A stretch of 64,000 nucleotides of DNA, from assembly GCA_963713855.1 (NCBI GenBank), contig OY970209.1:1184001-1248000 (forward strand), given 5' to 3'. A program made the translations under genes and the position numbers. The number at the start of each line of letters is the position of its first letter. The first letter of the stretch is position 1. The DNA comes from an uncultured bacterium. GTDB lineage: Bacteria; Babelota; Babeliae; Babelales; Babelaceae. The notes under the pieces are model-generated. The model was not told where the DNA came from. It was given only the letters and a program-made list of their open reading frames with translations, and made no database searches. This document shows positions 1 to 34,919 of this stretch, piece after piece.

Positions 1-443
1 GCTTTTACTGTCCTATCAAAAAGAAGTATGGCATATTCTAACGGCGTAAGTGTTCCTAGGTGTAGCCTTGCCCACCAAGGATTTCCACAGTATCCCAAAT
101 GGGTAAGCACTTGTTGTGCCTGTAGGTCCCTGACATTCACATCTGCACCAAGACCCAGAAGCGTTATTAGCACAGGGCCATCGTTGCGTTCGATAGCAAT
201 ATGCAATGGCGTAAATCCTTGATTGTTGCGACTATTTATATCAGCGCGCTCATGCAACACAAGCTGTGTTATGGCTTCTGCATTCCCTAGAAGGACGGCT
301 TTAAAAAGCCTTTCTGTTGCCTGGGATCTTTCCAGTATTCCCTGGTATTCCGGTGATTCTTGTCCTTTTTCCTCCATACCAAAAAGCCCCACAAAGCTCA
401 AGGCAAAGATAGTAAAAAGGAAATACTTATTAGTTGTTTTCAT
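1..443 (-). CDS. Ankyrin-repeat protein with signal peptide (5' part only; runs off window start)
   Basis: Manual translation from ATG at 443: MKTTNKYFLFTIFALSFVGLFG-MEEKGQ...ADINSRNNQGFTPLHIAIERNDGPVLITLLGLGADVNVRD. Canonical TPLH ankyrin motif and no stop before base 1. Not in the ORF track. Confidence 0.85.
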   Translation of the reverse strand, partial: MKTTNKYFLFTIFALSFVGLFGMEEKGQESPEYQGILERSQATERLFKAVLLGNAEAITQLVLHERADINSRNNQGFTPLHIAIERNDGPVLITLLGLGADVNVRDLQAQQVLTHLGYCGNPWWARLHLGTLTPLEYAILLFDRTVK

Positions 444-729
444 TATTTAACCAAGCTCTTAAAAGACTATATTACTATAATAGAATATTTTATAGATTTT
501 TTAAAAAATGTGAAGCCTCTCGGCCTAGATGGCGGGCTCTACAAGCTTTCGTTCACGCGAAATGATTGATAGAGGCACATTGATTTATTCCGATTGACAT
601 CAATACATGGCGACATGCCAAAGATGATTTTTTTTCTTTATTTTATTTTTACAAATGTTATTATGCTAAACATATATTCTTATATCAAATAACATTTTTA
701 TAAAAGTTTTTATTACGGAGAACATATCT

Positions 730-2589
730 ATGAAACTACAAAACATAGGTCTATGCGTGCTTTTCTTGAGTTTAAGCGCAAACCTTAAAGCAATGGATGG
801 AAGCTCACTTAGCCCCGCATCGCTATTTAGCTCTACACAGCCATCGTTTGCTACATTGATAAATGCAGTGCAGCGCATGTCTTCTGCAAATGTAACTAAT
901 GACTTTCAAGAAATTGATCGCATTCTCGAGGCTGGAAATTATACCGCTCTTCAAATCAAGCAAGCCGCTGAATTGGCTTTATCGCATAACAACAACGATC
1001 TTGCTGCGCATCTCAGGGCAAAAGCCCTTGCTAAGGAGCAAGGAACTGTCCCGCCGTCCGAACCCATGCAAGTAGACCCTGCAATTCCCGTGCCGGAACA
1101 AGGAAGTCTCGATCAAGCTGAAGAGCGTAGAGACGGAGAGCCTATGACTTTTGAAGGCGAGCAAGAAAATCCTCTAATGCGCGCCGTTCGAGGAATGGGT
1201 AGTTCAATGGACGTGACCCTCATTAATCGCGTTCTTGAAGAAGGTCCATACAGTGAAGCAGCTATTGAACAGGCGGCAAACCTTGCTCTTGCAAATAATA
1301 ACGTAGCACTAGCTCAATATCTGCGCTCAAAAAAAGAGGGTAGGGAAAAGGAAAAAGGTAAAGAAAAAGAAGGTGAAGAAGAACCGAGGGGATCAGAACC
1401 GGCTGGTGTTAATGGATTGCTTCGAGCCGTAATAGCAATGAATGATACAGGTCATCCTGATTTTGCAAAGATTGAGGCTATTTTTGCAGCCGAAACCTTT
1501 AGTGATGCTCAGATTGAAGAGGCGCGAGGCTTGGCAGAGGCTTCAGGCAATTTCCTTCTTTCACAATATCTAAGCGCAAAAATGAATAGTAAAGAACGCG
1601 AAGTTCGACTACCTCTTTCAATAGATGACCGCTTTGACCGTATGATGCTAACGGCGCGTCTCATCAATTTAGCCGATGACTATCCGAAAACCGCCAAAGA
1701 GGTTGAGGCCTTAATCGCAACTCTTCCTGTAGACGATTTAGTCGAGGCTCTTCCTCATATTAATCCTGCTGCCGTTAAAATAGTCGAAGCTGGCATAAAA
1801 TTGGCTTATGAGAGTCATGGCCAAAGACATACGTTAAGCTCGAAAGAAAGAGAACGTATTATGAGAAGAGGAGATAAAAGTTTAATAGCAGCTCGTTATT
1901 TGCGGCAATTAAGTAAAAAACCTGTGTTGGAGCCTGAAGATGAAAAAAAAGTCGATGCTTTGCTTAAGGTTATTACACAAACAGATCTTCGTATAGCTCT
2001 TGTGCTGTGCATTAAAGGCCACCCAATAGTTGTTTCAAAAATGGCCCTAAAACTCCATGGTGATGATCCAAGTTGCTCAAACACTAACGCGATTGCTCAG
2101 CTCGCAAAATTAATGGAAGATCGTCTTGCAGATCTTAGTGAGTCTGGTGACCAAGCGATAAATGAGCTGAGGTCTACTATCGCAGAGATAATAGTACTAC
2201 TTAAGAAACACTCTGACACGCTTAATGATCACGGGAGTTCGATTGCTGGTCATGCAAATAGGCTTAATGATCATAAAGGAAGGCTTGATGGCCACGACAG
2301 AGATATAAGAGACAATAAGCAGAATATCAGCCGTCACGAGAACGTATTAGATTGGATCAATACACAGATTACGAGATTATACGCGGGTCATTTTGATTTG
2401 TCGATAATAGCAGCTGGGCTTGCATTACTGCTTGGTCCTGGCGCTCTAAAGGCTACTTTTACCCTATTATGCGGGGTTGCAAATCCATTGATCGCATCGC
2501 TTGGCATGGGGGCGGCCACCATCTTGACGGTGATAATGGTCATAAAATTTTATTATGAATCCACCGCGCCGAGCACAGAGAGTCCGTAA
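730..2589 (+). CDS. Exported helical-repeat protein with His-heptad coiled coil and C-terminal hydrophobic hairpin
   Basis: 619-aa ORF with RBS ggag and signal peptide ending LKA-MD. Three ~55-aa internal repeats (LxxAV..M...I..I..A..LA...N..L..YL.xK), a heptad run and two C-terminal hydrophobic segments. Confidence 0.8.
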   Translation: MKLQNIGLCVLFLSLSANLKAMDGSSLSPASLFSSTQPSFATLINAVQRMSSANVTNDFQEIDRILEAGNYTALQIKQAAELALSHNNNDLAAHLRAKALAKEQGTVPPSEPMQVDPAIPVPEQGSLDQAEERRDGEPMTFEGEQENPLMRAVRGMGSSMDVTLINRVLEEGPYSEAAIEQAANLALANNNVALAQYLRSKKEGREKEKGKEKEGEEEPRGSEPAGVNGLLRAVIAMNDTGHPDFAKIEAIFAAETFSDAQIEEARGLAEASGNFLLSQYLSAKMNSKEREVRLPLSIDDRFDRMMLTARLINLADDYPKTAKEVEALIATLPVDDLVEALPHINPAAVKIVEAGIKLAYESHGQRHTLSSKERERIMRRGDKSLIAARYLRQLSKKPVLEPEDEKKVDALLKVITQTDLRIALVLCIKGHPIVVSKMALKLHGDDPSCSNTNAIAQLAKLMEDRLADLSESGDQAINELRSTIAEIIVLLKKHSDTLNDHGSSIAGHANRLNDHKGRLDGHDRDIRDNKQNISRHENVLDWINTQITRLYAGHFDLSIIAAGLALLLGPGALKATFTLLCGVANPLIASLGMGAATILTVIMVIKFYYESTAPSTESP

Positions 2590-2602
2590 TATTACACATT
2601 TT

Positions 2603-2629
2603 GGCGGAGGGGCGCATGTCTCCTCCGCC
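2603..2629 (+). terminator. GC-rich hairpin downstream of 730..2589
   Basis: ggcggaggggc-gcat-gtctcctccgcc. No clear U-tract. Confidence 0.45.
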
Positions 2630-2661
2630 GCCAGCCAAGCAAACTTGAGTTAGGGCGTTTT

Positions 2662-3306: not shown

Positions 3307-3383
3307 CATTATCATAAGCCATCAGCTAACAAAATTCACATCTGTTTAATTATTTAAGGCAAATCCGCTTCAGGAATACATCA

Positions 3384-4253
3384 ATGATATTTTTATTTGC
3401 TTTGCTTACACTACCTTTTACTCTCTGCTGTATGGAGGAAAGAAAGCCTATAGAGCACTTTCCAACGAGTGCTAGCAATCTTCAACTCCCAACCTTAAAT
3501 CGTGATTACAGAGATGAGGTTCGCGCAGCTATCATGCATCTTGACATAGAAACACTATGGCGCTTAAGGCGTGAACACGCAATACCGGGCCATGAATCGT
3601 CTTTTTTTAATTTTAATTACGATGATGGACAATCCCCTTTGGAAGTTGCTCTTCTGACAGGTGATATTGGTATTACGCAAGAGCTTGTAAATCTGGGTGC
3701 GGCACATATACCAAATAGCTCAACAGGGCTTTTTCCAATTCATGTCGCGATACTTTGCCACCTTAAGGAATTCGTTGTTCTTTTCGTGCATGCATTTCCG
3801 GATTCTATCGTTAGTCGAGATCGTTTTGGAAACACTCCTCTTCACGTTAATGCTCATTTTCCGGATACCATGATAGCAGAGTTTTTATTTAAGACTCGTC
3901 CCCTTCCTTCAGATGTTAATAATAATGGACAAACTCCACTCGCGCTTGCGCGGTTATGCGGCAATCCGGTACTTTCTTGGCTACTCGACGATGCGCAAGA
4001 AGAAAAATTTGGCCCCTTTATTAGTGAAGTTGACGCACTGTTCTATACGAACTTTTTGCCCGCAGGCTATTGGCGCTTGGCGCGACATACGCATAAACGA
4101 AGCAAAGAAAAAACGATCACGACAACCGAAGGTTTCCAATCTGAACGTCATTTGACACTTAGTTTAGATAGAACCACAAAGATTCAGCGAACTACGTCAG
4201 GATGCTGGTATCTTAAAGGCTGGAGGTTGGATAGATCGCGAAGGACGCAATAA
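3384..4253 (+). CDS. Ankyrin-repeat protein with signal peptide
   Basis: GQSPLEVA, GLFPIHVA, GNTPLHVNA and GQTPLALA repeats. N-terminus MIFLFALLTLPFTLCC-MEE. Confidence 0.85.
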   Translation: MIFLFALLTLPFTLCCMEERKPIEHFPTSASNLQLPTLNRDYRDEVRAAIMHLDIETLWRLRREHAIPGHESSFFNFNYDDGQSPLEVALLTGDIGITQELVNLGAAHIPNSSTGLFPIHVAILCHLKEFVVLFVHAFPDSIVSRDRFGNTPLHVNAHFPDTMIAEFLFKTRPLPSDVNNNGQTPLALARLCGNPVLSWLLDDAQEEKFGPFISEVDALFYTNFLPAGYWRLARHTHKRSKEKTITTTEGFQSERHLTLSLDRTTKIQRTTSGCWYLKGWRLDRSRRTQ

Positions 4254-4319
4254 AGTATTGCTTTTACGGTTGCAAATTATTTATGATTGAAAATAAAATG
4301 ACAATAAAAAGGAGCAGTT

Positions 4320-7438: not shown

Positions 7439-7466
7439 ACGGTACAAAAACGAGCATGGAAATACT

Positions 7467-8783: not shown

Positions 8784-8791
8784 AGACATAC

Positions 8792-8835: not shown

Positions 8836-9927
8836 TTACTCTGTTGTTATTTGCACAAGCTTATGCACGAACAAAGAATAATTTTTATCCCCCGTTATTT
8901 TATATTTTTCTAAACCTAGATCGATAAGTCTGCCAGCTTCTCTATAATTCACGCGAATGAATTGCGTTGACGCGTCAAGAATAAGGTATGCTTCAGAAAA
9001 TCTTCCTCCTTCAAGAGCTTCATATAAGGCCGTTACCCCATTATGATCTTGTGCATTAACAAATGATGTTTCCGAGCTATTAATGACTTTTTGGCAAAAC
9101 ATTACGATGATTTTTTCGTTTTTTATCGTCGTTTCTAAAAGTGCTATCACATGTAATAATCGCACTTTTATTTCTTCGATGTTGGCGTATTTTAGAGCAG
9201 ATTCTAGAATCAACTTAATTTCACCAAAGCCGACAGCATATGCAATTCCTCTAAGTGTATGCCCAATATCGTCAAATGTTAGTGTATTTATTTGCCTAAG
9301 AAGTTCCAGAAGTCTTTCTATGCTCTCGCGATTATGTGGCGCAATTTCGAGAATCGAGACAGTAGCCTGAGCCAACTCGTGTTCTATCGTTTGAGGCGTA
9401 ATTTGTCCCTGAAGCATTCTGCTGCATATATCAAGTATGAGGTGTCTGACTTGTGCGTTAACTGCTGGGTTATCGGCTATCATTGATGCGCGCATGACCA
9501 TTTCGCTTAGCCGAAACTCAAAACCTTGAGCAATATGAATGAGCGCATCGCGTATCTCACCGTTACTTGCACCAAGAATAGCCGATAGATGGAGTGGTGT
9601 TCTTCTTATATTGGCATCTTGAATTATGGGCACCCCACTTCTTAAAAAATAATCAACAGTGCTAGGAAGGCCTCTGTATACAGCAAAATCTAAAGGCGGA
9701 AGACCACGAGACACACCTTGCAAATGGGCACGTTCATCTATAAGAAAGCCCGCCTCTACAACATCTTCCCCTGCTATAGCCGCTAAGAGCCTGTCGTAAT
9801 TAGCCCGATGGCTAACTGGAGGGCTATCAGGTAGAGGGTCATGCAGAAAAGCCCACTCCATCGGTCGATTGTGAGAAAAAGCAAGAAGAAAAGTGATTAT
9901 AACAAAATGCATTTTAAATATGTTCAT
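8836..9927 (-). CDS. Ankyrin-repeat protein with signal peptide
   Basis: GLPPLDFAV, RRTPLHLSA, VNAQDHNGVTALYEAL. Likely start MNIFK at 9927, with signal then RP-MEW. Confidence 0.8.
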   Translation of the reverse strand: MNIFKMHFVIITFLLAFSHNRPMEWAFLHDPLPDSPPVSHRANYDRLLAAIAGEDVVEAGFLIDERAHLQGVSRGLPPLDFAVYRGLPSTVDYFLRSGVPIIQDANIRRTPLHLSAILGASNGEIRDALIHIAQGFEFRLSEMVMRASMIADNPAVNAQVRHLILDICSRMLQGQITPQTIEHELAQATVSILEIAPHNRESIERLLELLRQINTLTFDDIGHTLRGIAYAVGFGEIKLILESALKYANIEEIKVRLLHVIALLETTIKNEKIIVMFCQKVINSSETSFVNAQDHNGVTALYEALEGGRFSEAYLILDASTQFIRVNYREAGRLIDLGLEKYKITGDKNYSLFVHKLVQITTE

Positions 9928-10033
9928 AATAGAACCCTTATTGTTTATGTGATACGATGGTTGCAAGGGTTTAGTATACATTTTTTAAAGCACGATTATT
10001 AAGCAACTTAATTTTAACGCATGGAGGCGTTTA

Positions 10034-10690
10034 ATGTTCATTAATGCATCAACCACAATACGTGTGCTATCTTTTGCGATGCTTCTAGGGGCATCTTCAT
10101 GCTTTTCTATGGAAGAGGGCGAAGAATCTTCGGAAAGGCTGACTGAAACAAGTAAATTGGTATCTGAAATGCTAGCAAGCACAGCTTTGGGTCGTCTACA
10201 GACTGCTCTAGGATACAGTTCGGCTTCGCGAGATCATGTCTTTTTTAGGCCAAATGTACAAAGAGCTCAAGACATCGTTCTTGAACTATTGCAAAATAAC
10301 CCTTCCGAAGAATTACTTAATACAATACTCCCCTATTTAGCTCAAGTTGTAGAACGTTACGATGATGATATCGGTAGCATACACTGGCGGGAGTTATTCA
10401 TTGCTCTTGCTGCATCGGTTAGTTTGAGTGAAACGTCCATCGGTTTTTTGGTTGTATTGTTTATAATTAGTATATGGGTTAAACATGCAGCATTATCGCC
10501 TAATCATTTAACCAAAGGAAACCTTACATTACTTAGATCTTTAATGGTTGATATAGTGCAGTATATGAAAATTAACCAAATGGAACCAAATCGCTACGCA
10601 CTGAAAGTACTTAACCCAGAAATGGTAATTTCTAATTTGCTCAGCAGTATTAGCAACAATGCCGAAGACAAGGGTGAAAAAAAAGAATAA
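10034..10690 (+). CDS. Exported hypothetical protein with internal hydrophobic segment
   Basis: RBS ggagg. Signal ending CFS-MEE. Confidence 0.7.
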   Translation: MFINASTTIRVLSFAMLLGASSCFSMEEGEESSERLTETSKLVSEMLASTALGRLQTALGYSSASRDHVFFRPNVQRAQDIVLELLQNNPSEELLNTILPYLAQVVERYDDDIGSIHWRELFIALAASVSLSETSIGFLVVLFIISIWVKHAALSPNHLTKGNLTLLRSLMVDIVQYMKINQMEPNRYALKVLNPEMVISNLLSSISNNAEDKGEKKE

Positions 10691-10703
10691 GGCCCTTTTA
10701 GCC

Positions 10704-11657
10704 ATGGTTTTTAAAAGGACCCATCATAGTGCAATGCTTCTTATCTTAATAGTAGTTTTGGCCTATTTTATAAAAAAGGTGAATGCAACAAAAGGTATGC
10801 TTTTTATCCCTGGTGGCACTTTCCTCATGGGATGCGGTGAGCAATCAATGATTGATGCTCAACCTTTTCATGAAGTAACGGTCGATAGCTTTTGGATAGA
10901 TGCTACAGAGGTAACTAACGAGCAGTTTGAGCGCTTTGTACGTGCAACTCATTATATAACTGAAGCGGAGCGCTCGGCGCCAGTACCTGGCTCTTTGGTT
11001 TTTGTGCCGACCGCTCATCCCGTCTCCTTTAACAATTGCTGCGCCTGGTGGAAGTATGTACCGGGCGCTTCATGGCGACACCCAGAAGGACCAAGTAGCA
11101 GTATTAAGGGGCGTGAAAAGCACCCCGTAGTACACGTTACATGGAATGACGCTGCTGCGTATGCTTCTTGGGCCGGTAAGCGTTTACCTACTGAAGCAGA
11201 ATTTGAATACGCGGCCCGGGGGGGGCTTAACAAAAAACGCTATAGTTGTGGAAATGGCCCTGTTGCTACGAACGGTAAATGGCTTTTTAATATTTGGCAG
11301 GGGATCTTTCCCTGCACAAATACTCTTGAAGACGGCTTTTACGCTACAGCTCCTGTTGGCTCTTTTCCAGCCAATGGCTTCGGCCTTTACGATATGACGG
11401 GAAATGTGTGGGAATGGTGTCAAGATTGGTACCACGCTCGGTATTATAAAATGCATAGCGAAAAGCGTAATCCTAAAGGTCCCGAACAAAGCTTTGATCC
11501 AGAAGAGCCTAACTGCCCTAAAAAAGTGCAGAGGGGTGGTTCGTTTTTATGCAACGAGGTGTATTGCATACGCTATCTTGTTGGTGCTCGTGGCAAGGCA
11601 GACCCCAATACGAGTACCGTTCATTGCGGGTTTCGGTGTGCTAAATCTTTTTCTTAA
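10704..11657 (+). CDS. Formylglycine-generating enzyme (SUMF1/FGE-sulfatase family)
   Basis: IPGGTFLMG, TEVTN, HPVVHVTWNDA, KRLPTEAEFEYAARGG, NGFGLYDMTGNVWEWC, RGGSFLCxxxYCxRY, GFRC. Start uncertain (10659, 10704 or 10734). Confidence 0.92.
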   Translation: MVFKRTHHSAMLLILIVVLAYFIKKVNATKGMLFIPGGTFLMGCGEQSMIDAQPFHEVTVDSFWIDATEVTNEQFERFVRATHYITEAERSAPVPGSLVFVPTAHPVSFNNCCAWWKYVPGASWRHPEGPSSSIKGREKHPVVHVTWNDAAAYASWAGKRLPTEAEFEYAARGGLNKKRYSCGNGPVATNGKWLFNIWQGIFPCTNTLEDGFYATAPVGSFPANGFGLYDMTGNVWEWCQDWYHARYYKMHSEKRNPKGPEQSFDPEEPNCPKKVQRGGSFLCNEVYCIRYLVGARGKADPNTSTVHCGFRCAKSFS

Positions 11658-11710
11658 ATTTTCACCGCGCGACTTATTATACTAAACATGTCTTTAGTAA
11701 AGGAGCCGCG

Positions 11711-13336
11711 TTGATGAAGTGCCAGTTAGCCCTTATATTTCTTATTTGTATTGCAGAAAGCACCTTAAAGCCTCAGCATAAGTCGACATTTGAAAGTGAC
11801 TTACAAACGCAACCAATTAACGAAGACCCCATTGTTGCAAAGACGGTCCAATTTTCTGAAAACCGAGAACCAGCCATCGTTCACGATGCCCAAAACGCAA
11901 AAGCTCAAGCAAAGCTTGATTCTTTACGAAAAAAAACTGGTAAAAAGCCTAATATCCTTATTTTTCTTATGGACGATGTTGGCTGGGGAGATCTTGGTGC
12001 TTTTGGTGGAGGCATTGCCGTCGGTTCACCGACACCTACCATGGACCGTCTTGCGCGTGAGGGATTAAAGCTTACATCAACCTACTCACAGCCCACATGT
12101 ACTCCTTCTCGTGCAACAATTATGACTGGAAGACTTCCAATGCGGACAGGGCTTTTACGCCCTCCCATGTACAGCGAAAAAGGGGGGCTTGAAGGTGAAA
12201 TTACAACCGCTCAGCTTTTACAAAAAGCTGGGTATGTTACCCAAGCTGTCGGAAAGTGGCACATGGGGGAAAATGAAGCATCGCAGCCTCAAAATGTTGG
12301 ATTTGACGACTTTTTTGGTTTTCTTGGCGTATCTGACATGTATACAGAATGGAGAGACCCGTACTTTTACCCTGAAATTGTAAACAGTAAAGAACGTACA
12401 GCCATGGTAGAAAAGGCCGACTTTAATAAATATCTTGTTCATGGGCGAAAGAACAGTAAGCTCGAAAATATCAAAGAGATTACCATACCCATCTTATCTG
12501 AGCTTGATGAAATGTGGGCGGACTATTCTGTACGTTTTATTAAAGAAATGGCTAAAAGTGAAAAACCGTTTTTCTTATACCACTGTACACGAGCTGGCCA
12601 CTTTGACAATTACCCAAATGCTCGATGGAAAGGTCGTTCTCCGGCAAAGCACCCCTACAAAGATTGCTTCGTTGAGGTAGATGATATTTTAAGACGAATT
12701 ATTCAGACGTTAAAAGAAACAGGACAGCTTGAAAACACCTTTATATTCGTCACATCTGACAACGGTCCAGAGATGGAGCTTTGGCCGGATAGCGGATATA
12801 CGCCTTTTAGAAGCGCAAAAGGTGCTACGTGGGAAGGGGGGCAGCGCGTGCCGGGCATTGCTTATTGGAAAGACATGATTACTGAAGGCCGAGAATCGGA
12901 TGGTGTTTTTGATCAAGCCGATCTTTTTGCCACAATCCTTACACTGTGCAACGCAAAGGACCTAATACCACGTGATCGCTATATTGATAGCATAGATCAG
13001 ACCTCTTTCCTTCTTGCAGATAACGGATTCTCAAACAGAAAGTTTGTTTACTATTGGCTACAGGACGACTTTTCCGCGGTGCGCTGTGGTGAATTTAAAT
13101 ACTATCGCTCCGCAACCACACCAGATTATCGCGATACTCACAATGTTGGAGGTCTTTCAGGAGCGCATACAAAATATAATTATGGAAAGTTTTTTAACCT
13201 CTACTTAGATCCAAAAGAAGAGCATAGCTATCTTATACGAAAGCTCGTTTATTCAGATATTTTCTTCTCAGCTATGGATAAGCACAAAGAAACATTCGTG
13301 AAATATCCTCCCAAAAAACTCGTAAGCATTCCATAA
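11711..13336 (+). CDS. Arylsulfatase (Cys-type, AslA-like), exported
   Basis: KPNILIFLMDDVGWGD, CTPSR (CxPxR) signature, GKWHMG, SDNGP, K-G-x-T-WEGG-x-RVP. Adjacent to the FGE gene. Confidence 0.93.
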   Translation: MMKCQLALIFLICIAESTLKPQHKSTFESDLQTQPINEDPIVAKTVQFSENREPAIVHDAQNAKAQAKLDSLRKKTGKKPNILIFLMDDVGWGDLGAFGGGIAVGSPTPTMDRLAREGLKLTSTYSQPTCTPSRATIMTGRLPMRTGLLRPPMYSEKGGLEGEITTAQLLQKAGYVTQAVGKWHMGENEASQPQNVGFDDFFGFLGVSDMYTEWRDPYFYPEIVNSKERTAMVEKADFNKYLVHGRKNSKLENIKEITIPILSELDEMWADYSVRFIKEMAKSEKPFFLYHCTRAGHFDNYPNARWKGRSPAKHPYKDCFVEVDDILRRIIQTLKETGQLENTFIFVTSDNGPEMELWPDSGYTPFRSAKGATWEGGQRVPGIAYWKDMITEGRESDGVFDQADLFATILTLCNAKDLIPRDRYIDSIDQTSFLLADNGFSNRKFVYYWLQDDFSAVRCGEFKYYRSATTPDYRDTHNVGGLSGAHTKYNYGKFFNLYLDPKEEHSYLIRKLVYSDIFFSAMDKHKETFVKYPPKKLVSIP

Positions 13337-15002: not shown

Positions 15003-16070
15003 TTATAACATGTAAACTTCCTTGTGCGTGTTCAATCGAACGAGGCTTTGCGTGATGGATCCTTCATCAAAGTTTGGAAGAATAAGCTCCGAGATCATTT
15101 CTTCAAAAAGCTTATCTATATCCTCACTAGACACATCAATTGGTTGATCCTGGTGCAACAAATGCTTCTCGATGAGTTCTTTGATAACGTAGTAATTCAA
15201 TTGAATCTGTACGCTCAACAGGGGGTAATTACCTTCGCGGCCGCTGAGTATGCGATAGAATTCATTAAACATCAGTTCTGACAGTCGTTCACTCAAGGCA
15301 CTTAGCTCCTCGTCATAAGATTGTCTACTAAATGCTATAAGCCTTAACAAATAACTAAAAACGTCAAATCTGCCTTGAAAAGCAGACAGTGTACAAGCTC
15401 TTTTTATATATTCAAAAAGGGAGATGACGAGTTTATGTAAAGCGATGGCTTTACCCATGCTAGCTGACGGCGTTTGATGATTATTTAGGTACCGCATACA
15501 AAGAGCTACAATACTTTTGATTGCTGAAAGATGGCCTGCTGCAGCTGCTCTTACAAGCCCTTCACCTAAAACGTGAAGTAGATGCTCTTCGTTATCATAG
15601 TTACGCAAAAAGATCAATTGCCCAGCGTTTTGAAGAAGGCTAGTTAAACCCTGGCCCGCCGACATACGAAAGACCCGTTCTAATTCCTCATTTGGTAGAT
15701 CTTTGTGACAGTCAAGCAAAGAAAGTATAGCCTTTTCTTCTTTATGCATCGCAATAAGACGTAATAGTCTATTTGGCATGATGTATGTTTTTTTAGCTTT
15801 CCTTAAAAATCTTATCCCATATTCACTGAATAGTGGAGCAAAACGGTGGTTTTCTTCTCGAGAAAAAGAGGTTGTAACACGTTCTATAAAATAACCACTG
15901 TCTACTTCATAGCCATCTTGCAAAAGCGCTTCAAGCCTTTTGGCGTTAAATGAGTCATTAAAAATAGATTCTGTATGAACGTAAATTGACTTAATATCAA
16001 TTCCAGGATATTGCATAGCACGTGCTACTGAAAAAGTAAGAAGCCCAATAAGTATAATAGGTGGTTTCAT
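15003..16070 (-). CDS. Exported divergent ankyrin-like protein
   Basis: Signal ending ARA-MQ. Degenerate ankyrin helices (FRMSAGQG, LVRAAAAGHL, CTLSAFQGRF). Confidence 0.7.
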   Translation of the reverse strand: MKPPIILIGLLTFSVARAMQYPGIDIKSIYVHTESIFNDSFNAKRLEALLQDGYEVDSGYFIERVTTSFSREENHRFAPLFSEYGIRFLRKAKKTYIMPNRLLRLIAMHKEEKAILSLLDCHKDLPNEELERVFRMSAGQGLTSLLQNAGQLIFLRNYDNEEHLLHVLGEGLVRAAAAGHLSAIKSIVALCMRYLNNHQTPSASMGKAIALHKLVISLFEYIKRACTLSAFQGRFDVFSYLLRLIAFSRQSYDEELSALSERLSELMFNEFYRILSGREGNYPLLSVQIQLNYYVIKELIEKHLLHQDQPIDVSSEDIDKLFEEMISELILPNFDEGSITQSLVRLNTHKEVYML

Positions 16071-20494: not shown

Positions 20495-21436
20495 TCACCG
20501 TGGGCTTAAGAGCGCGAGTATTTTGGGGCTTCTTTTATAAAGTTTTGCGATATCTAAAGGCGTATTTCCGATACAATCGCCTATTTTTAATGAGGAGCCT
20601 GCGCCTATCAGAAGTTGAATAAAATCAGCCTCGGCAAATGCAGCAGCCCAATGTAATGGGGTAAGACCGTCCGAATCTTGTGCATTGCCGGAAGCACCTT
20701 TTTGCATGAGCTTTTTTGCCAAAAAGTGCATATTTCTACGTGCAGCCCAATGCAAAGGTATTCTTTTGTCGTTATCGCTTATTGTCGCTGACGATCCTGC
20801 GTTAAGAAGTATATCGGCAGCTTTTTTTGCACCAAGCTGAATAGCGTGAACAAGTGGCGTTTGGCCATTCACATCTTGCGCATTTAGGTTTGCCTTGTAA
20901 GCAATAAGAAGCGCCATACTTTTTTCATCGCCGCTGCGAGCACTTTTGTGTAGCGGCGTTTCCTGATCGCGGTCTTTTGCTTCGATTGCAGCGTTTTTGC
21001 GTATAAGCACTTCTGCAGACTTAAAGCGCCTATAATAGGTAGCCTCATGCAATGGGGTTTTTTGTAAAGCGTCCAATGCGTTAACATCAGCGCCATTTTC
21101 GATCAAAAGCTCTACAATCGAAGGATTGTCTTGAAAAGAGGCTAAATGTAATGGTGTTTGATTAAAAGAATTAACAGCATTTACAAGAGCACCTTTGCTC
21201 AAAAGAGTTTTGACTATATCTTTATAACCATAAGCACTTGCAAGGTGCAAAGGCGTATTACCTACAGCATCTTTCGCATTGATATTTTTAGCTTGCCCCA
21301 TAAATGGCAAAATTTCATTCACATCACCTAAGGCAACAGCACAATGGAGAGCCTTGCATTTTTCTTCCCCTCTTTGGGCAAAGCTTAGCGCGCATGGGAT
21401 AATGGTGGCCGCAAAAACGTAAACGAAACTTTTCAT
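20495..21436 (-). CDS. Ankyrin-repeat protein (about 8 canonical repeats), signal peptide
   Basis: Repeated (G/Q)xTPLHxA. Start MKSFVY overlaps the upstream stop (TGATG). Confidence 0.93.
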   Translation of the reverse strand: MKSFVYVFAATIIPCALSFAQRGEEKCKALHCAVALGDVNEILPFMGQAKNINAKDAVGNTPLHLASAYGYKDIVKTLLSKGALVNAVNSFNQTPLHLASFQDNPSIVELLIENGADVNALDALQKTPLHEATYYRRFKSAEVLIRKNAAIEAKDRDQETPLHKSARSGDEKSMALLIAYKANLNAQDVNGQTPLVHAIQLGAKKAADILLNAGSSATISDNDKRIPLHWAARRNMHFLAKKLMQKGASGNAQDSDGLTPLHWAAAFAEADFIQLLIGAGSSLKIGDCIGNTPLDIAKLYKRSPKILALLSPR

Positions 21437-22491
21437 CAGATGCCTCCTAATATGCTCTTTAAAGAAAACGCTGAGCATGTTTTGTCCGTCTCACACTGTT
21501 CTTTGTAAAGGAGCGCCTTTTTTGCGCGTGTATTGAGCTTATTGATCAGCTTCATCGCATTTCCCTCTTCAACAAAGTCAAGCGCTAAGAAATTAGGATT
21601 TTTACCATACCCTAGCCCCTTTTTCTTGCAGAAATTAACAAGATCTTTAAGTGCATTATAGCTGTTATCTTTAGCACTTGCCGCTAAAGGACCTGTAAAT
21701 TGCCTAAAAAAGTTAATTAAAAGAAGATAGCGCTTCAAGTCTTTAAATGCTGCCGAATCATGTCGCTCAGCAGAGGCTTTTAACTTATCTACCGTACCGT
21801 ATTGAGATTCAATCATATAATGCCAACTATACCAAAACGGAAATGTATACCTATCTGGGTTATCTTTACGTGAAAAATCTGAACCTGTCTTATCTTCATT
21901 AAAAATAACAATTCTTTTGTTGCGAGCCCTCATCCATGAAAGTGTTGGCCATTTGCCATCGTGCTTAGAAGGATCCCAATCTTTTAGCTCTAACACCATA
22001 GGCAAAAAGCTTTCTAATGAGGCAATTTCCCCAGCCACTTTTTCATTATCTACGCGATTTTCTAAAAAAATAGTTACTATCTCAGAAGGGTGCTTATCGA
22101 GCCACTCTTTTATAGTAGTAAGCGTGCTTTTAAGCGTTTCATACTCGTGCTTGTTCCACAAAGCACCGGCTGCCTTACCAATCCCCTTTTGTAAGGTGTG
22201 TAGAGCACTGCACCCACCGTGGCACAGGCGTATTGACCCGTCCGGAAATTCGTGGGCATCAAGCATTATGCCACGCACACCATGGTCAAGCTGCTCTTCG
22301 ATACTCCATGTTTGCATCATATACCGCATCCAACCCTCGTTAAAATTGGCAAATGCATTATGGGCAGTTAAAAAAGATACCTCATCATAGCGAAGCTTTG
22401 AGTAAGGAAAAACCCACGCATCTAAACCGAGAGCTACGTTCGTGTATAAGACTAAGCATACACCTAATTTCTGAATTGTTCTTATATACAT
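21436..22491 (-). CDS. PI-PLC X-domain-like phosphodiesterase, exported
   Basis: TAHNAFAN, QLDHGVRGIMLDAH, LCHG, WLDKHPSEIVTIFLEN, WPTL..M...KRIVIF, NFLALDF. Confidence 0.85.
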   Translation of the reverse strand: MYIRTIQKLGVCLVLYTNVALGLDAWVFPYSKLRYDEVSFLTAHNAFANFNEGWMRYMMQTWSIEEQLDHGVRGIMLDAHEFPDGSIRLCHGGCSALHTLQKGIGKAAGALWNKHEYETLKSTLTTIKEWLDKHPSEIVTIFLENRVDNEKVAGEIASLESFLPMVLELKDWDPSKHDGKWPTLSWMRARNKRIVIFNEDKTGSDFSRKDNPDRYTFPFWYSWHYMIESQYGTVDKLKASAERHDSAAFKDLKRYLLLINFFRQFTGPLAASAKDNSYNALKDLVNFCKKKGLGYGKNPNFLALDFVEEGNAMKLINKLNTRAKKALLYKEQCETDKTCSAFSLKSILGGI

Positions 22492-23395: not shown

Positions 23396-24514
23396 TTAAG
23401 TGTTTTCATACTCTTTTTCTAGAAGTTCCAGATAAGGTGCAAACGTATAAAGCTTATTGCGCTTTTGTTCGGTGCTTTCCCTCAAGTACCCTAAATCCAC
23501 AAAAAGCCGAACAACGCTGTGAGCAGTGTTATAGGCCTTATTAAGGCGCGCGCTTACCTCTGTGATACTAATAACGGGCAACTGAAAGAATAAAGAAAGT
23601 GCCTTTAGTGCTGTTGGCCTGCCTCTACTAAAAGCTCTATCGCTCTCGATGGTTGCTCTCAGGTGTTTTTCAAGAGCCTCTATATCTTTTGCTCTCCGGT
23701 ACGCGTCCATACTACTATCTCGAATAGTTTTTAAGTAGTACACAAGCCACCCCTCAAAGTCTCCATTCGTTCTTACCGCATCAAGCCGCTGGTAGTACTC
23801 GAGGTGGTTCTTTTTTATGTAATATGAAGGATAGAGGATGGGAGCTGAAAGCAGTCCACCTTCTATAAGCATGAGAACAATTAAAAGCCGCCCTATACGG
23901 CCATTTCCATCAAGAAACGGGTGAATCGTTTCAAATTGCACGTGTACAAGGCCCGTTTTTATAAGAAGGGGAAGCCCATCCTCTCTATGCATATACGCTT
24001 CAAGTTCTGTCATAAGGCGAACGATTTGATTAGGCGGGCTTGGCAGCAAGTTGCCTACGCGTACCATCTGTTGACGATAGCTTCCCGGATGTGCGTGGCC
24101 TTCTAAAAGCTCTGAATGCGCCGCTAAAATAACTCTTGAAGACAGCGGAAGGCCTTCCTCCTGTATAAGTTGCAACCCAGTCTCAAGCGCTTTTGAGTAA
24201 TTAAGAATAAGGTTTGCATCTTTAGACGATTTTGTTTCAAGAAAAGGCTGCGTAAATACGTCGCCAAGCGTCGTATGGATGCCCTCAATAGCCGAAGATA
24301 AAAGAGCCTCTTTAATAACGTACGCTTTTATAAATCTTTTAATGTTAGGTAAATAGCGGGCCATCTCATTCAGTTGCCCCAACCGAAGCATAGCTTCGCC
24401 GTAAAGAACCGCAAGCTGGCCACCTAGCTCAAAAGGCGGATCTTTAGGCGGAAGAGGATCGGGTATAAAAAACTGCTTGTCGGCTAACGTTTCGTAATAG
24501 CCTGTTTTTCTCAT
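23396..24514 (-). CDS. Fic family protein (class II) with C-terminal HTH
   Basis: Catalytic HPFLDGNGRIGR and N-terminal inhibitory SSAIEG motif. Confidence 0.93.
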   Translation of the reverse strand: MRKTGYYETLADKQFFIPDPLPPKDPPFELGGQLAVLYGEAMLRLGQLNEMARYLPNIKRFIKAYVIKEALLSSAIEGIHTTLGDVFTQPFLETKSSKDANLILNYSKALETGLQLIQEEGLPLSSRVILAAHSELLEGHAHPGSYRQQMVRVGNLLPSPPNQIVRLMTELEAYMHREDGLPLLIKTGLVHVQFETIHPFLDGNGRIGRLLIVLMLIEGGLLSAPILYPSYYIKKNHLEYYQRLDAVRTNGDFEGWLVYYLKTIRDSSMDAYRRAKDIEALEKHLRATIESDRAFSRGRPTALKALSLFFQLPVISITEVSARLNKAYNTAHSVVRLFVDLGYLRESTEQKRNKLYTFAPYLELLEKEYENT

Positions 24515-24669: not shown

Positions 24670-26472
24670 TTAGCTCACTTTTGGAGCTTCCTCACTTTTA
24701 ACTTCAGGAGTTTCAGCTTTAACTTCGGGAGTTTCATCAACTTTCTCAATTACTTCTTCGTGTGTAAGATAGCCGTAAATTCTTTCAGAAAGGACTCCTG
24801 CAAAAGCGACGATAGCGCCAACGCCAACAGCAAGACGGCTTCTTGACCAACCCGTACTTACCGGAGCTGCCGGAGGTTGACTTTCAATAGAGTCACCGAC
24901 GCCTTTATTAGATTTATTCAGCTTATCTTTAAGCTTCTTTGTACCATCCTTAACCTTATTCGTAGCTTTTTCAAACGCTTTCTTAAGCTTTGAAGGTTTG
25001 TCATTGGTTGGTTGATCGTCTTTCTTATTTAGCTTCTTCTCGATCTCTGTGGGCTCACCGTTCGCAGGCGGAGCAAATTTCTCAGGCAATGTAGGATCAA
25101 GCTTACCCGGTACTATATTATTGCTTCCACTTTCCACTTCAGGAACAATCACAGCAACACCTATTGTATCACTTGTCCCCCGAACTCTGTCACCTGGTAC
25201 CGGGTCCTCTATCATTGAGTCAACATCAGTCAATAGGCCAACATCAGTCGCGTCATCATCACCTTCAACAACTGTCACAGGCTCTTGATCAGTTTCCGGC
25301 CTTATTTCTAGACTTGCCTCTAAAACTGAAGCCTCTTCAAGGTTAAAATCTTCCTCCGGGATATCTTTTGAAACTTCTTTTTCTTTTTCTCGTTCACGAG
25401 ATTCGCTTTGCACAGGTGCAGGGCGACGCCTTATTTGAGAAGTTCTGTCATCAAAAGGAACATTAAGAGCAGTTTCTATGCGAGAAAGCATGAGAGGTCG
25501 ACTCGCAGCGAGCATGCGAGGTGTTTGACCCTCCCTATTTGGTAAGTCAACAATACCTAGTAGAACAGTAGGGTCAACGTCTGCTAGAACAGCATACAAA
25601 AACAAAATCTGATCGCTCATGATAGCAAGATGTAAAGGCATATCTCCATTACGGTCGGCTCTCATGAGTACCGTGGGACAGGTTTCAATCATGCGTTTTA
25701 TAAGCTTGGTCAATGATTTAATATATTTCTTGATTCGCGATTTTGAAGAGCCCTCTTTAAAATGAATTTTTCGTAAGAGCATATGGAGCGGGGTCTTTCC
25801 GGCTTTATTTTTTCTATCAACTGGAACTCCCGCATCTAGCAATATATTTGCTATGTTAGGCAATCCTGCATGGATGGCCAGGTGAAGAGCAGAATTATCA
25901 CGAGCATCTACATGGCTCAGTATCTCAGGCATATTACGCACAAAATGCCTAACTATCCCCTCCCTGCCTGTACGTGAGGCAAGAAGAAAGAAAGTTTCTT
26001 GATTCCGATTCCTCAGAGTCGCGCCTTCAGGTCGCTCATGCAATAATACTGTTAACCCCCTTACGTTATTATTTATGACCGTGACGTGAAACGCTGAGTC
26101 TCCTTGATCGTTAACAGCTGCAAAATTTGCGCCAGCGTTAAGAGCGGCTAAGACATCTGTCACGGTAGCCTCAGAGTCTCTTGCTGCAGCTCGAAAAAGG
26201 AGATCATTTACTCCTTCGTGAGAGGCTAAACTTAAAGGTTTCGCCTCACCTCTCTTCTCTTTTTTCTCTTTTCTTGCTCTTTCTGTAGTTGGAGATCTTT
26301 TGACTGCGTCCGCTAACTTTCCACGCAATCCTGAAATAAAGCCACCCCGTTTAGGGGTTTCCGGCTTTTTGGGAGTTTCTTTGGGGTCATCTTCCCCACC
26401 TTCCATGGCCTTGAGAGGTTGAAGGGAGCATCCAATCAAGATCGCACCCAAAAGCATATGTTTTCTATTCAC
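24670..26472 (-). CDS. Ankyrin-repeat protein with signal peptide, acidic/Lys-rich tail and C-terminal TM helix
   Basis: Signal ending LKA-MEG. GDSAFH, DNSALHLA, GKTPLH, GDMPLHLA. TM segment LAVGVGAIVAFAGVL and a 21-bp tandem repeat (ETPEVK). Confidence 0.88.
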   Translation of the reverse strand: MNRKHMLLGAILIGCSLQPLKAMEGGEDDPKETPKKPETPKRGGFISGLRGKLADAVKRSPTTERARKEKKEKRGEAKPLSLASHEGVNDLLFRAAARDSEATVTDVLAALNAGANFAAVNDQGDSAFHVTVINNNVRGLTVLLHERPEGATLRNRNQETFFLLASRTGREGIVRHFVRNMPEILSHVDARDNSALHLAIHAGLPNIANILLDAGVPVDRKNKAGKTPLHMLLRKIHFKEGSSKSRIKKYIKSLTKLIKRMIETCPTVLMRADRNGDMPLHLAIMSDQILFLYAVLADVDPTVLLGIVDLPNREGQTPRMLAASRPLMLSRIETALNVPFDDRTSQIRRRPAPVQSESREREKEKEVSKDIPEEDFNLEEASVLEASLEIRPETDQEPVTVVEGDDDATDVGLLTDVDSMIEDPVPGDRVRGTSDTIGVAVIVPEVESGSNNIVPGKLDPTLPEKFAPPANGEPTEIEKKLNKKDDQPTNDKPSKLKKAFEKATNKVKDGTKKLKDKLNKSNKGVGDSIESQPPAAPVSTGWSRSRLAVGVGAIVAFAGVLSERIYGYLTHEEVIEKVDETPEVKAETPEVKSEEAPKVS

Positions 26473-26690: not shown

Positions 26691-27821
26691 ATGGAACCAT
26701 TAGCATCACGTATAAGGCCTACGAGTCTTTCAGAATTTATTGGCCAAGAGCATCTTGTGGGTAAGGGAAAGCCTTTACAAAGCGCCATAGAAAAAGAGCA
26801 TCTTTTTAGCTTCATTTTATGGGGACCACCAGGTGTTGGAAAAACTACCTTAGCTCGCTTATATGCAAAAGCTCTCGATGCAGCATATTACGAACTCTCG
26901 GCGGTTTCGGCTGGTAAAGACGCCATAAAAAAAGCCATCGAAGCTGATGATCAACAAAAACCAAAAGTTCTCTTTTTAGATGAGCTGCATCGCTTTAACA
27001 AAGCGCAGCAAGATTTTCTCTTGCCGTACGTCGAGTCTGGCATGCTCGTTCTTATTGGTGCTACCACCGAAAACCCGAGCTTTGAGGTTATACCAGCCTT
27101 ACTTTCGCGCTGCCAGGTTTTTGTTCTACGTGAGCTTAGCGAAGAAGAGCTTATCAAGATCCTTGATCGTAGCGGTATTACTATTGAACCTGACGCCAAA
27201 AAATGGCTAGCCCAGATAGCTAACGGAGATGCTCGTCAAGCGCTATCCATTGCTGCAAATGCTGCCGAGCTTTATAAGACAGTTACGCTAGAGACGATTA
27301 AGTGCACCTTACAAAAAAGCTTTCTTAAGTACGACAAAAAAGGTGAGGAGCATTACAATACCATTTCCGCTTTTATTAAATCGATGAGAGCTTCAGATGC
27401 TGACGCAGCTCTCTATTACCTTGCCCGTATGGTTGAGGCTGGCGAAGAGCCGAAATTTATAGCTCGGCGCATGGTCATATTCGCTTCAGAGGATATTGGA
27501 TTAGCCGATCCGCAAGCCTTAACGATCGCTACAAGCGTTTTTAGGGCAGTCGAAGTGCTAGGGTACCCCGAATGTGCTATATCTCTTTCGCATGGTGTTT
27601 GCTATCTTGCTCGCGCGCCAAAAAACAGAGCATCCTATAATGCATACTTTCAAGCCGTTAACGATGTTACTGCTCATGGCAATCTACCCATCCCACTTGT
27701 TATAAGAAACGCACCAACAAAGCTTATGAAGGATCTCGATTATGCAAAAGGGTATACGATGTACTCAAAAGAAAGTCTGTTGCCTGAAAAGCTTAAGGGT
27801 AAAAAGTACCTAAAAATCTAA
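26691..27821 (+). CDS. rarA: Replication-associated recombination protein A (RarA/MgsA AAA+ ATPase)
   Basis: PLASRIRP, GPPGVGKT, DELHRFNKAQQD, GATTENPSF, ISAFIKSMR.SD, ASEDIGLADP. Confidence 0.95.
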   Translation: MEPLASRIRPTSLSEFIGQEHLVGKGKPLQSAIEKEHLFSFILWGPPGVGKTTLARLYAKALDAAYYELSAVSAGKDAIKKAIEADDQQKPKVLFLDELHRFNKAQQDFLLPYVESGMLVLIGATTENPSFEVIPALLSRCQVFVLRELSEEELIKILDRSGITIEPDAKKWLAQIANGDARQALSIAANAAELYKTVTLETIKCTLQKSFLKYDKKGEEHYNTISAFIKSMRASDADAALYYLARMVEAGEEPKFIARRMVIFASEDIGLADPQALTIATSVFRAVEVLGYPECAISLSHGVCYLARAPKNRASYNAYFQAVNDVTAHGNLPIPLVIRNAPTKLMKDLDYAKGYTMYSKESLLPEKLKGKKYLKI

Positions 27822-30928: not shown

Positions 30929-31039
30929 GCTGACAGTTTTTTATGCACCTCACTCTCACTTTCAATTGACTCATGAGAATGTTCCTTGTTACACTTGCTA
31001 CGTCGATTTTTTGCGTACTCAAAGCGTTTTTAATGCATT

Positions 31040-33319: not shown

Positions 33320-33452
33320 GTAGCGCAACTAAAATAAAAATATTTTTTCTTACTATTTATAAATAGATGAAAGATTAAGGCCTTAAAAGTCAATTTTATA
33401 ACCAAAAAGGTGTATACTAAAGTACCATGTTACTCTTTCTTAGAGGAATAAA

Positions 33453-34919
33453 ATGGTACATCTATCTTACTTTATCTTGCCTGCAACTCTTATTTTCTGC
33501 ACCGTTGACGCCATGGAGTGTACCTATGCATCACGCGTACAGCGCTCCGAAATCCCAACACTATGCAATTCACTAAGCATCATTTTTGACGAGTTAGCTC
33601 TTGGAAACTCTCCGCAAAGAGCTATTTCATGCTGGTCTGAAGAAATGTTAAAGCTTCTAAAAAAAGGAGCAAACATCAATGACCTAGACGAGGAAGGTAA
33701 AAATATACTACATCATTTTCTTTGCTGGTTGCTAAAAGAAGAAAATCAGGATCTCGATTTTGACGTAGAAAGTATTCTCGATAATCTCTTTTTAGGCCAA
33801 GGTGCTACATTTATTAATTACGAAGGACTCTTACAAGAAATTGTATCATCACGAGCTTTGACTAAATCGCCAGCTTTAAGAAAAGTAATCTTGTGGCTTA
33901 TAACTAATAATTTTCCTGTGCCACCGATGTCGCAAACGGTACTTACACCGTGCTTACGCGTTCATTCGTTGTTGCAGCTTATTACTAATGGGGAAGAAGA
34001 GTTTATTGCTAGTCTTCAGGCAATCCAATTTCTAAGTGACTTATTTTTCCGTGAGCCGCAGACTGGCGTCCTTGCCATGCTATTAGATCAGATAGAAGCT
34101 TCCTACTCTGAAAGAGAACGAGTAATATCTATAGCACTGCCAGTGCATGAAATCATCACGCACAATGAAACTTTGTTTGGAAGATTAACTCCAATAAGCT
34201 TTTTATCTCAACTTTTAGCACCTTCGATGGTACCCTTTTTAAGCGGAGTTCTTGAAATGGCTGCCGGGCGCGGCCATATACGGATTGCAGACTATATAGT
34301 AAATACCCTGGCGCAGGGGCACGAACTATATTGGCTTAACCCTCGAGTGCTTACCAGAGCTATGACAAGAAGCGCGGCTGCTGGACATTTAGACGTTACC
34401 ACATTGCTCATGCAAAGACTTACTAATACACCCCTTAGTTTTGACGAGCCATTTTTGTTAGCTGCAGGTCGGGCACATGTCGATACGCTTATTTATTTTC
34501 TAATGAACCGTGCAGCACTCATAACAGATAACGCTGTCGAAGAAGCACTCTTAATAGCTTCTCGGCAGAACAATCTAACTGTTATACAGGCGATCGTAGG
34601 CTACAGAAGAACTTTTGACACTTGCTTCTGGAAAAGAGTTATAGAAAGCTGTCTGAAGCTTGCTTCCATACGACTCAATAAACATGTCTTTAGTTTTTTG
34701 CTCAAGTTTGATAGAGAAGAAGGTTTCATCATAGATACGCGATCTATCGCCACGATCATGCACGAACTTTCGCAAGATACCAACTTGCCACGAAATATGC
34801 GTATACAATATGCTAATTTTGTAACGCAACTCAATAGACACAAGCCAAATCCGCCTTCAAGCATTGATTTTCTAAGTCGGATTCTTAAATCGATTCAACC
34901 TACTATTGAACACTCTTAG
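33453..34919 (+). CDS. Exported divergent ankyrin-repeat protein
   Basis: Signal ending VDA-MEC. GANINDLDEEGKNILH plus repeated AA.xGH helices. Confidence 0.8.
   Translation: MVHLSYFILPATLIFCTVDAMECTYASRVQRSEIPTLCNSLSIIFDELALGNSPQRAISCWSEEMLKLLKKGANINDLDEEGKNILHHFLCWLLKEENQDLDFDVESILDNLFLGQGATFINYEGLLQEIVSSRALTKSPALRKVILWLITNNFPVPPMSQTVLTPCLRVHSLLQLITNGEEEFIASLQAIQFLSDLFFREPQTGVLAMLLDQIEASYSERERVISIALPVHEIITHNETLFGRLTPISFLSQLLAPSMVPFLSGVLEMAAGRGHIRIADYIVNTLAQGHELYWLNPRVLTRAMTRSAAAGHLDVTTLLMQRLTNTPLSFDEPFLLAAGRAHVDTLIYFLMNRAALITDNAVEEALLIASRQNNLTVIQAIVGYRRTFDTCFWKRVIESCLKLASIRLNKHVFSFLLKFDREEGFIIDTRSIATIMHELSQDTNLPRNMRIQYANFVTQLNRHKPNPPSSIDFLSRILKSIQPTIEHS

Follow-up and report, generated by a model that had tools for sequence, protein, structure and literature searches.

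In bacterial lipoproteins, the residues just past the cleavage site decide the destination of the protein, as with the +2 residue in Lol avoidance and the export signal of Bacteroidota. In oomycetes, a large and diverse set of effectors that are translocated into the host is marked by a signal peptide with a short N-terminal motif and then an acidic stretch behind it (RxLR-dEER). Dependentiae are widespread parasites of protists, with ankyrin repertoires that are very large for the size of their genomes. Here we analyze a stretch of 64,000 nt (hereafter the window; positions 1184001-1248000, forward strand) from an uncultured bacterium (GTDB lineage Babelota; Babeliae; Babelales; Babelaceae; assembly GCA_963713855.1, contig OY970209.1; genome label G000), together with the rest of its genome and samples of related genomes. 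The feature in question is a Met located directly after the predicted signal peptide, which we call the junction Met; proteins that carry it form the Met class, and nine of them are encoded in the window.

Neither of the two motif systems above has this arrangement. Lipoproteins have a lipidated Cys at +1 and are cut by signal peptidase II, whereas the Met class has Met at +1 and Cys only at -1, in 13 of 96 sites. The RxLR-dEER motif lies tens of residues past the cut, is eukaryotic and has another sequence. A nearer parallel comes from Plasmodium, where the mature N-terminus (x-E/Q/D) left by cleavage at the Plasmodium export element (PEXEL) or by signal peptidase decides export into the host cell, according to the part of PMC10653839 available to us. 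There, as is predicted for the proteins studied here, a hydrophobic endoplasmic reticulum/Sec-type signal is cut, E, Q or D is second in the new N-terminus, and the motif is common to hundreds of otherwise unrelated effectors; the new N-terminus, not the part removed, separates host-exported from compartment-retained proteins, and a signal peptidase cut suffices if the right end results (PMC10653839, same part). Among 254 Met-class proteins from seven genomes, the second mature residue is E in 142, Q in 31 and D in 14. Unlike the bacterium considered here, Plasmodium is a eukaryotic parasite in which plasmepsin V cuts after RxL, whereas the predicted cut in the Met class follows G, A, C or S at -1 and L, A, I, S or V at -3. 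The first mature residue is variable in PEXEL proteins and Met here, and acetylation and the PTEX translocon (Plasmodium translocon of exported proteins) are known there, whereas the Met class is known from sequence alone.

Signal-peptide ankyrin proteins have been described from cultured relatives. In Babela massiliensis, 79 of 126 ankyrin proteins have signal peptides (PMC4378268, in the portion available), and in Chromulinavorax destructans a signal peptide is predicted in 44% of coding sequences (PMC6561590, likewise in part). These accounts resemble our data in that most ankyrin proteins have a signal peptide; in the portions available they mention no conserved post-signal residue, and the Met-Glu junction and its restriction to one class are additions of this study. 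The available portions of the Babela, Chromulinavorax and TM6 comparative-genomics papers (PMC4378268, PMC6561590, PMC4776705) mention no such residue, and our literature search, which did not cover the supplementary tables of the Dependentiae papers, found no description of a conserved Met or Met-Glu after a signal peptide. The reading we favor, tentatively, is that the Met-Glu end may be a sorting tag that is read after cleavage and routes host-directed effectors.

Junction geometry and class specificity

G000 consists of a single contig of 1.52 Mb (41% G+C), and genome-wide counts refer to a crude set of 1228 open reading frames (ORFs) with a minimum length of 100 aa. In all genomes, genes and signal peptides were called by home-made heuristic rules; for 8 of the 10 sequences looked up, the public gene calls are letter-identical to our ORFs, signal peptide included. 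To count as a candidate cleavage site, a position needed G, A, C, S or T (the small residues) at -1 and L, A, I, S, V, T, G or C (the allowed ones) at -3, with hydrophobic sequence ahead of it and hydrophilic sequence behind; the (-3,-1) rule alone fixes the predicted cut position.

Met followed by Glu or Asp has a frequency of 0.0086 at residues 21-25 of G000 ORFs (53 cases), compared to 0.0014 beyond residue 100. A hydrophobic stretch followed by M[EDQ] at residues 15-36 is found in 96 ORFs, with Glu after the Met in 76, Gln in 12 and Asp in 8. The -1 residue is small in 80 of these 96 (31 G, 22 A, 13 C, 9 S and 5 T; Leu in 4), and the -3 residue is an allowed one in 83 (27 L, 13 A, 11 I, 11 S, 8 V, 5 T and 5 G). 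Arg is not among the top -3 residues, and an RxL directly before the cut, as in PEXEL, was rejected on these counts. Both conditions hold for 75 of the 96 junctions vs. 16% of 765 control M[EDQ] sites deeper in proteins. The Met thus lies exactly at the position that this rule predicts for a signal peptidase I cut, in agreement with the first-pass annotation, which had inferred signal peptidase cleavage just before it. Taking all candidate cleavage sites together, Met is the most enriched first residue (5.6-fold; 86 of 955 sites, in 85 proteins; binomial p = 1e-36), and its median position is residue 23.

By a fair estimate, some 80-90 of the 1228 ORFs have a Sec-type signal peptide followed by a junction Met-Glu/Gln/Asp; about one protein in 15 carries the motif, and most of these are ankyrin-type. 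The genes are distributed along the whole chromosome, with a greater density near the window. The motif that had been noticed in the window is therefore real, and its extent has to be redrawn, from one island to a trait of the whole proteome and, as described below, of the family.

The distribution over protein classes was examined for the 140 ORFs with a candidate site in a 400-kb part of G000 (1.04-1.44 Mb), all of which were scanned against Pfam (Table 1). The 27 other exported proteins with a Pfam domain include lactonase-type propellers, a sulfatase, S8 and A4 peptidases, beta-helix/Ig proteins, a DegP-like protease, a beta-lactamase-fold protein, and LRR, TPR and DnaJ proteins.

Table 1. 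Junction Met among 140 candidate-site ORFs of G000 (1.04-1.44 Mb), by protein class.
Class	With junction Met	Without junction Met
Ankyrin or RING	18	4
Other exported, with Pfam domain	0	27
No Pfam family	17	49
Polytopic or anchored membrane	0	6
Cytoplasm-type enzyme domains	0	19

The motif is restricted to effector-like exported proteins, that is, to ankyrin-type and orphan proteins. A greater frequency of M[EDQ] in ankyrin-type than in other exported proteins, as anticipated in the first-pass annotation, is what we find: 18 of 22 ankyrin or RING proteins have it vs. none of 27 others (Fisher p = 6e-10, a value that is overstated, as paralogues are not independent). Over the whole genome, 48 of 80 ankyrin proteins pass the filter of signal peptide plus Met, and in about five more a junction Met can be seen by eye. 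The Met class of two other family genomes, G005 and G010, has a similar composition, with 40 ankyrin proteins among 66 and five eukaryote-type WD40 proteins (Pfam). Their non-Met set comprises 86 proteins, of which 16 are ankyrin proteins (five of these with a junction Met by eye), along with Omp85, FtsW and other housekeeping proteins.

Several proteins met along the way deserve mention in their own right. Some of the 19 cytoplasm-type enzymes have convincing signal-peptide-like N-termini; outside the window, an amino-acid kinase (L121:4404-5279), a glucose-6-phosphate dehydrogenase (L121:9909-11291) and a nucleotidyl transferase (L122:230-1369) of G000 have such N-termini and no junction Met. 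A signal-peptide protein with pretoxin HINT and Ntox21 domains, an architecture of polymorphic-toxin type, is encoded at L132:6780-7637 (G000 1266780-1267637). Many Met-class proteins of G005 and G010 (L101-L120) show an N-terminal LP.EL stretch that looks F-box-like by eye; F-box families are not among the 25 most frequent Pfam families listed.

By the same heuristic rules, the Met class has the n-, h- and c-regions of Sec/signal peptidase I substrates, and G000 has the enzyme, encoded by a single gene (PF10502, Peptidase_S26, E = 1.9e-34). Neither the length and charge of the n-region nor the length and hydrophobicity of the h-region differs between the Met class (n = 41) and other signal-peptide proteins (n = 343). 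What does differ is the stretch of 30 residues that follows the signal, which is more acidic (0.20 vs. 0.13, p = 5e-5) and more hydrophilic in the Met class. Three other types of signal were considered and rejected. A lipoprotein signal is ruled out by Met instead of Cys as first mature residue; one match, LTAC-MQ at G000 1290258, resembles a true lipoprotein by eye. A Tat (twin-arginine translocation) signal is ruled out by the presence of a twin arginine upstream in only 1 of 254 Met-class proteins. As for a type IV prepilin-like leader, the hydrophobic stretch precedes the cut and Gly is at -1 in only 31 of 96; the true prepilin-like N-termini of G000 (141551, 158008) differ from the Met class.

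The charged and acidic region past the signal, together with the single signal peptidase I gene, could be taken to mean that Met-Glu is simply the junction that the Sec and signal peptidase machinery of this lineage handles best when the early mature region is charged and disordered, with no role after cleavage. We consider such a constraint on export competence improbable. The same peptidase processes the non-Met class with ordinary junctions, and a cleavage preference would not be limited to ankyrin, RING and orphan proteins. Nor is Met known to be a favored residue right past the cut.

A protein-level feature of one family

The signal lies at the level of the protein, and the junction Met is not a second start. 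Around the junction, codon choice is typical of the genome: Glu at +2 is encoded by GAA in 46 cases and GAG in 23, and the Gly and Ala codons at -1 also follow genome usage, which rules out a signal at the nucleotide level. A Shine-Dalgarno-like motif is found 4-20 bases upstream of 47% of all ORF starts in G000, and of 45 of 80 Met-class gene starts. It precedes only 3 of the 80 junction ATGs, less often than it precedes control internal ATGs (13% of 5832). In six relatives the corresponding numbers are 105 of 169 gene starts and 3 of 169 junction ATGs.

These counts bear on an alternative raised in the first-pass annotation, in which the junction ATG would be an internal translation start yielding a cytoplasmic isoform that lacks the signal peptide. 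Every junction offers an in-frame ATG, and the U-rich coding region of the signal peptide is probably little structured. The scarcity of Shine-Dalgarno-like motifs at the junction speaks against such starts, and we regard them as highly improbable: there is also no -10-like signal in the nucleotide table (by eye), a small residue strictly at -1 is not something that an internal start would require, and public gene calls take the upstream start in all eight exact matches.

By BLASTP, the 80 best Met-class genes fall into 37 unrelated groups: one of 37 members (ankyrin), one of five, three pairs and 32 singletons. Similarity of the 5' DNA (promoter plus signal peptide) is seen in just 4 of 3160 pairs of Met-class genes, which rules out a shared mobile 5' cassette. 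One case is a family of seven, six paralogues in G000 and one protein in the same-genus genome G001, whose members are recognizably related only in the C-terminal half. In their first ~130 residues the junction Met is one of two invariant columns, with variation at both -1 (G/A) and +2 (E/H). This family (including G000 597340-599298, 1077983-1079693 and 1272706-1274516, and L142 of G001) has a diverged N-terminal half and a single ankyrin-like repeat, and most members end in a hydrophobic tail. For the Met class as a whole, C-terminal membrane anchors are not significantly enriched (6 of 85 vs. 14 of 406). Judging from these comparisons, the motif is apparently kept by selection, not by descent of one cassette.

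A related possibility is that the junction Met is a relic, the start codon of once-cytoplasmic or host-acquired genes that later gained a signal peptide by 5' extension. The exact position of the Met at the junction and the eukaryote-like domains of the proteins are what such a history might leave behind. A fossil start codon would not explain the Glu, because only 34 of 794 ORFs that lack a signal peptide have Glu in second place, as compared to 56-79% after the junction Met. Almost no ankyrin genes without a signal peptide start with Met-Glu. In addition, a residue with a single codon would decay if it were not selected, whereas this Met is retained in 37 unrelated groups and invariant in a diverged family; on balance the relic explanation seems quite improbable.

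Relatives were sampled in part (100-400 kb per genome) and analyzed with the same crude pipeline as G000 (Table 2). All seven sampled genomes of the family, G000 included, show the signal, in 4-21% of ORFs and with Met enriched 3-20 fold, whereas in the three genomes of other families it is absent or marginal.

Table 2. Junction Met in partially sampled related genomes.
Genome	Relationship to G000	Proteins with Met at candidate site	ORFs	Enrichment of Met
G001	Same genus	12	303	3.1x
G003	Same family	22	350	4.9x
G004	Same family	48	338	10.6x
G005	Same family	34	164	19.5x
G010	Same family	33	182	15x
G012	Same family	20	325	6x
G013	Other family	2 (neither typical)	79	2/57 sites, not significant (p = 0.31)
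G015	Other family	6	174	2.3x, 6/118 sites (p = 0.05)
G016	Other family	0	156	None, 0/130 sites

Best cross-genome hits of 96 queries give a noisy result, being mostly ankyrin paralogues from partial genome samples. The fraction of best hits with both a signal peptide and the Met is 7/22 for G001, 9/12 for G004, 3/12 for G003, 8/12 for G005, 7/14 for G012 and 1/3 for G010, compared to 0/5 for G015 and 0/6 for G016. The residue after the Met is mostly Gln in G012. At least four proteins in the G003 sample (L041-L060) show a double-Met variant of the junction, M-Q-S/C-M-E/D.

Across the seven family genomes, the junction Met precedes D, E, N or Q in 195 of 254 proteins vs. 438 of 1681 control sites (26%), and E alone accounts for only 9% at control sites. 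These four residues are the ones that define substrates of the eukaryotic N-terminal acetyltransferase NatB (Met-Asp/Glu/Asn/Gln), whose specificity is established, as is the N-degron hierarchy. The resemblance, already pointed out in the first-pass annotation, is borne out by the larger set. The N-terminus may accordingly serve as an identity in the host: a Met-Glu/Asp/Asn/Gln end would mimic a eukaryotic cytosolic protein and NatB substrate, with Met capping a destabilizing D, E, N or Q, and would shield the effector from N-degron pathways or provide an acetyl-Met end for docking. This is the main rival of the sorting tag, with which it is compatible. The eukaryote-like domains of the class (ankyrin, RING, WD40) fit it, as do the NLS-like (nuclear localization signal) basic clusters that some members have right past the motif.

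Other observations make host-side identity an unlikely primary explanation. The N-degron pathways and NatB are universal in eukaryotes, yet the signal-peptide ankyrins in the sampled genomes of other families lack the Met (none of 11 best hits in G015 and G016 combined, besides the empty site count of G016). Glu is far preferred to Asp (142 vs. 14), which NatB would not explain, and in about 23% of the proteins the Met is followed by some other residue (K, S, H, T and others). The main targets of NatB are nascent chains, and the end considered here, although it has the same dipeptide set as NatB substrates, would arise by proteolysis in the periplasm and not by initiation on a host ribosome. 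What weakens the rival is that the motif is limited to one lineage and that Glu is so strongly preferred to Asp. Because the trait is confined to one family, a co-evolving bacterial reader of the motif is suggested; the lineage pattern would fit co-evolution with such a lineage-specific reader.

The window genes and their surroundings

All nine N-termini that the first-pass annotation had quoted from the window are present in the translated ORFs (Table 3). It had described the nine as ankyrin or novel helical proteins; the ankyrin part stands for the four genes with matches over the Pfam cut-off, a fifth has sub-threshold matches, and the other four match no family.

Table 3. Window genes with a junction Met (window coordinates).
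Gene	Position	Strand	Junction	Met residue	Met codon	Pfam	Public gene call
Ankyrin gene, 5' part	3..443	-	LFG-MEE	23	375-377	Ankyrin repeats over cut-off
Orphan gene, 619 aa	730..2589	+	LKA-MDG	22	793-795	No family over cut-off	Identical
Orphan gene, 214 aa	2662..3306	+	SMG-MER	24	2731-2733	No family	Identical
Ankyrin gene, 289 aa	3384..4253	+	LCC-MEE	17	3432-3434	Ankyrin over cut-off	Identical
Gene with ankyrin matches	8836..9981	-	NRP-MEW	23 or 41 (see text)	9859-9861	Ankyrin, sub-threshold	Starts at 9981
Orphan gene, 218 aa	10034..10690	+	CFS-MEE	26	10109-10111	No family	Identical
Orphan gene, 355 aa	15003..16070	-	ARA-MQY	19	16014-16016	No family	Identical
Ankyrin gene, 600 aa	24670..26472	-	LKA-MEG	23	26404-26406	Ankyrin over cut-off	Identical
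Gene with weak ankyrin match, 488 aa	33453..34919	+	VDA-MEC	21	33513-33515	Ank_4, 29.9 bits (cut-off 22.7)	Identical

The first gene extends past the window edge, its full extent being G000 1183055-1184443. The least canonical of the nine junctions is that of 8836..9981, with Pro at -1; its Met is residue 23 from the start at 9927 chosen in the first-pass annotation, a shorter form (8836..9927) without an exact public match, and residue 41 from the start of the longest ORF. In 24670..26472 the junction is followed by a charged, proline-rich stretch. The structure-atlas look-alikes of 15003..16070 are ankyrin-like, yet weak, below recognition level. For the orphan 10034..10690, no relative was found in the 20 related genomes searched. 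Homologue searches gave generic ankyrin proteins from all domains of life for an ankyrin query, and for one family the only match was itself.

The exported enzymes and surface proteins of the window lack the junction Met, as had been stated, and the N-termini and Pfam matches confirm this for the sulfatase, the GH115 and PI-PLC-X proteins, a propeller, two beta-helix proteins and an S8 protease (47572). They likewise confirm the two exceptions among the ankyrin proteins, at 20495 and 37521, which have no junction Met.

The enzymes themselves form a set that is unusual for the genome of a 1.5-Mb parasite: by Pfam, the window encodes a formylglycine-generating enzyme beside the sulfatase, a PI-PLC-X-domain protein, a Fic protein and a GH115-family glycosidase (10659-13336, 21436-22491, 23396-24514 and 38820-40946). 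A MgsA-type AAA+ ATPase (26691-27821) has a patchy distribution, with a 76%-identical counterpart in G004 and only weak AAA-domain matches in the same-genus G001. At one end of the window (56000-64000), the AT skew is 0.24-0.26, far above the rest of the window, and the GC skew is about -0.12. Elsewhere in G000, two tandem ankyrin proteins (1325232-1327082 and 1327159-1329087) contain NLS-like basic clusters (KKRKR, KKRRK) within ~25 residues past the Met-Glu junction.

Proposed secretion route and possible meaning of the junction

The genome of G000 encodes two secretins and two ATPases of type II secretion system type (T2SSE matches), and secretins are present in all 21 related genomes. Profile searches of G000, which is 91% complete, gave no match for FHIPEP, VirB4, VipB, OEP/TolC or CsgG; these systems are accordingly reported as "not found" rather than "absent". 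The one known outer-membrane exit that turned up in this genome is a type II-like system based on secretins. A type II system was also the sole secretion system that was detected in Babela massiliensis (PMC4378268, in the part available), and the gene content of G000, with ~80 ankyrin proteins, secretins and no injection-system match, fits the descriptions of Dependentiae in the available parts of PMC4378268 and PMC6561590.

The proposed route would begin with a Sec-type signal peptide ending in a small residue, which would export the effector to the periplasm. Signal peptidase I is predicted to cut directly before the Met, exposing a Met-Glu, Met-Gln or Met-Asp end. This end would then be recognized, after cleavage, as a class-specific tag and would send host-directed effectors (ankyrin, RING, WD40 and orphan proteins) onward from the periplasm. 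Cleavage before the Met, recognition of the new N-terminus and the route are all predictions from protein and gene sequences. We favor the sorting tag because the same Sec signal serves both classes of exported proteins and the difference between them starts exactly at the first mature residue, and also because the class is made up of proteins that have to act in the host, in genomes in which no injection system was found.

Several results weigh against a sorting tag. No candidate receptor was found, and the copy numbers of secretins and signal peptidase do not differ between motif-bearing and motif-less genomes; on these grounds, both a dedicated second signal peptidase and an extra secretin were rejected. 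Type II secretion is not known to read linear N-terminal tags. About a quarter of the signal-peptide ankyrin proteins have no junction Met, and the tag is therefore not obligatory. The class statistics, as mentioned, are inflated by paralogy, and about 6 of the 96 G000 sites are false positives; they belong to housekeeping proteins of the cytoplasm or membrane for which the start was mis-called and whose relatives begin at that Met or have no signal peptide. Finally, cleavage matrices self-trained on the non-Met class collapsed into the hydrophobic core and ranked the site before the Met top in no more than 6 of 41 and 4 of 41 proteins; we regard this as a failure of the method, not as evidence.

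A broader and more doubtful version of the sorting-tag reading, based on the analogy with Plasmodium, is that the junction might be a bacterial counterpart of PEXEL logic. Met-Glu/Gln/Asp would then be an address label for 4-21% of the proteome, directing proteins from the periplasm to the host by way of a putative reader or translocon, and might double as a NatB-type end.

The type III, IV and VI injection systems, which other intracellular bacteria use for such proteins, were not found in the genomes examined. A short motif, fixed in position, that separates effector-like from ordinary exported proteins provides a direct and mutable handle on effector delivery, and it is a cheap predictor of effector sets for hundreds of uncultured genomes. 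Since it occurs in one family and not in its sampled neighbors, comparative genomics could locate the machinery that reads it. If the tag does act after cleavage, this family would join Plasmodium as a second, independent example of a parasite that uses the mature N-terminus as an export code.

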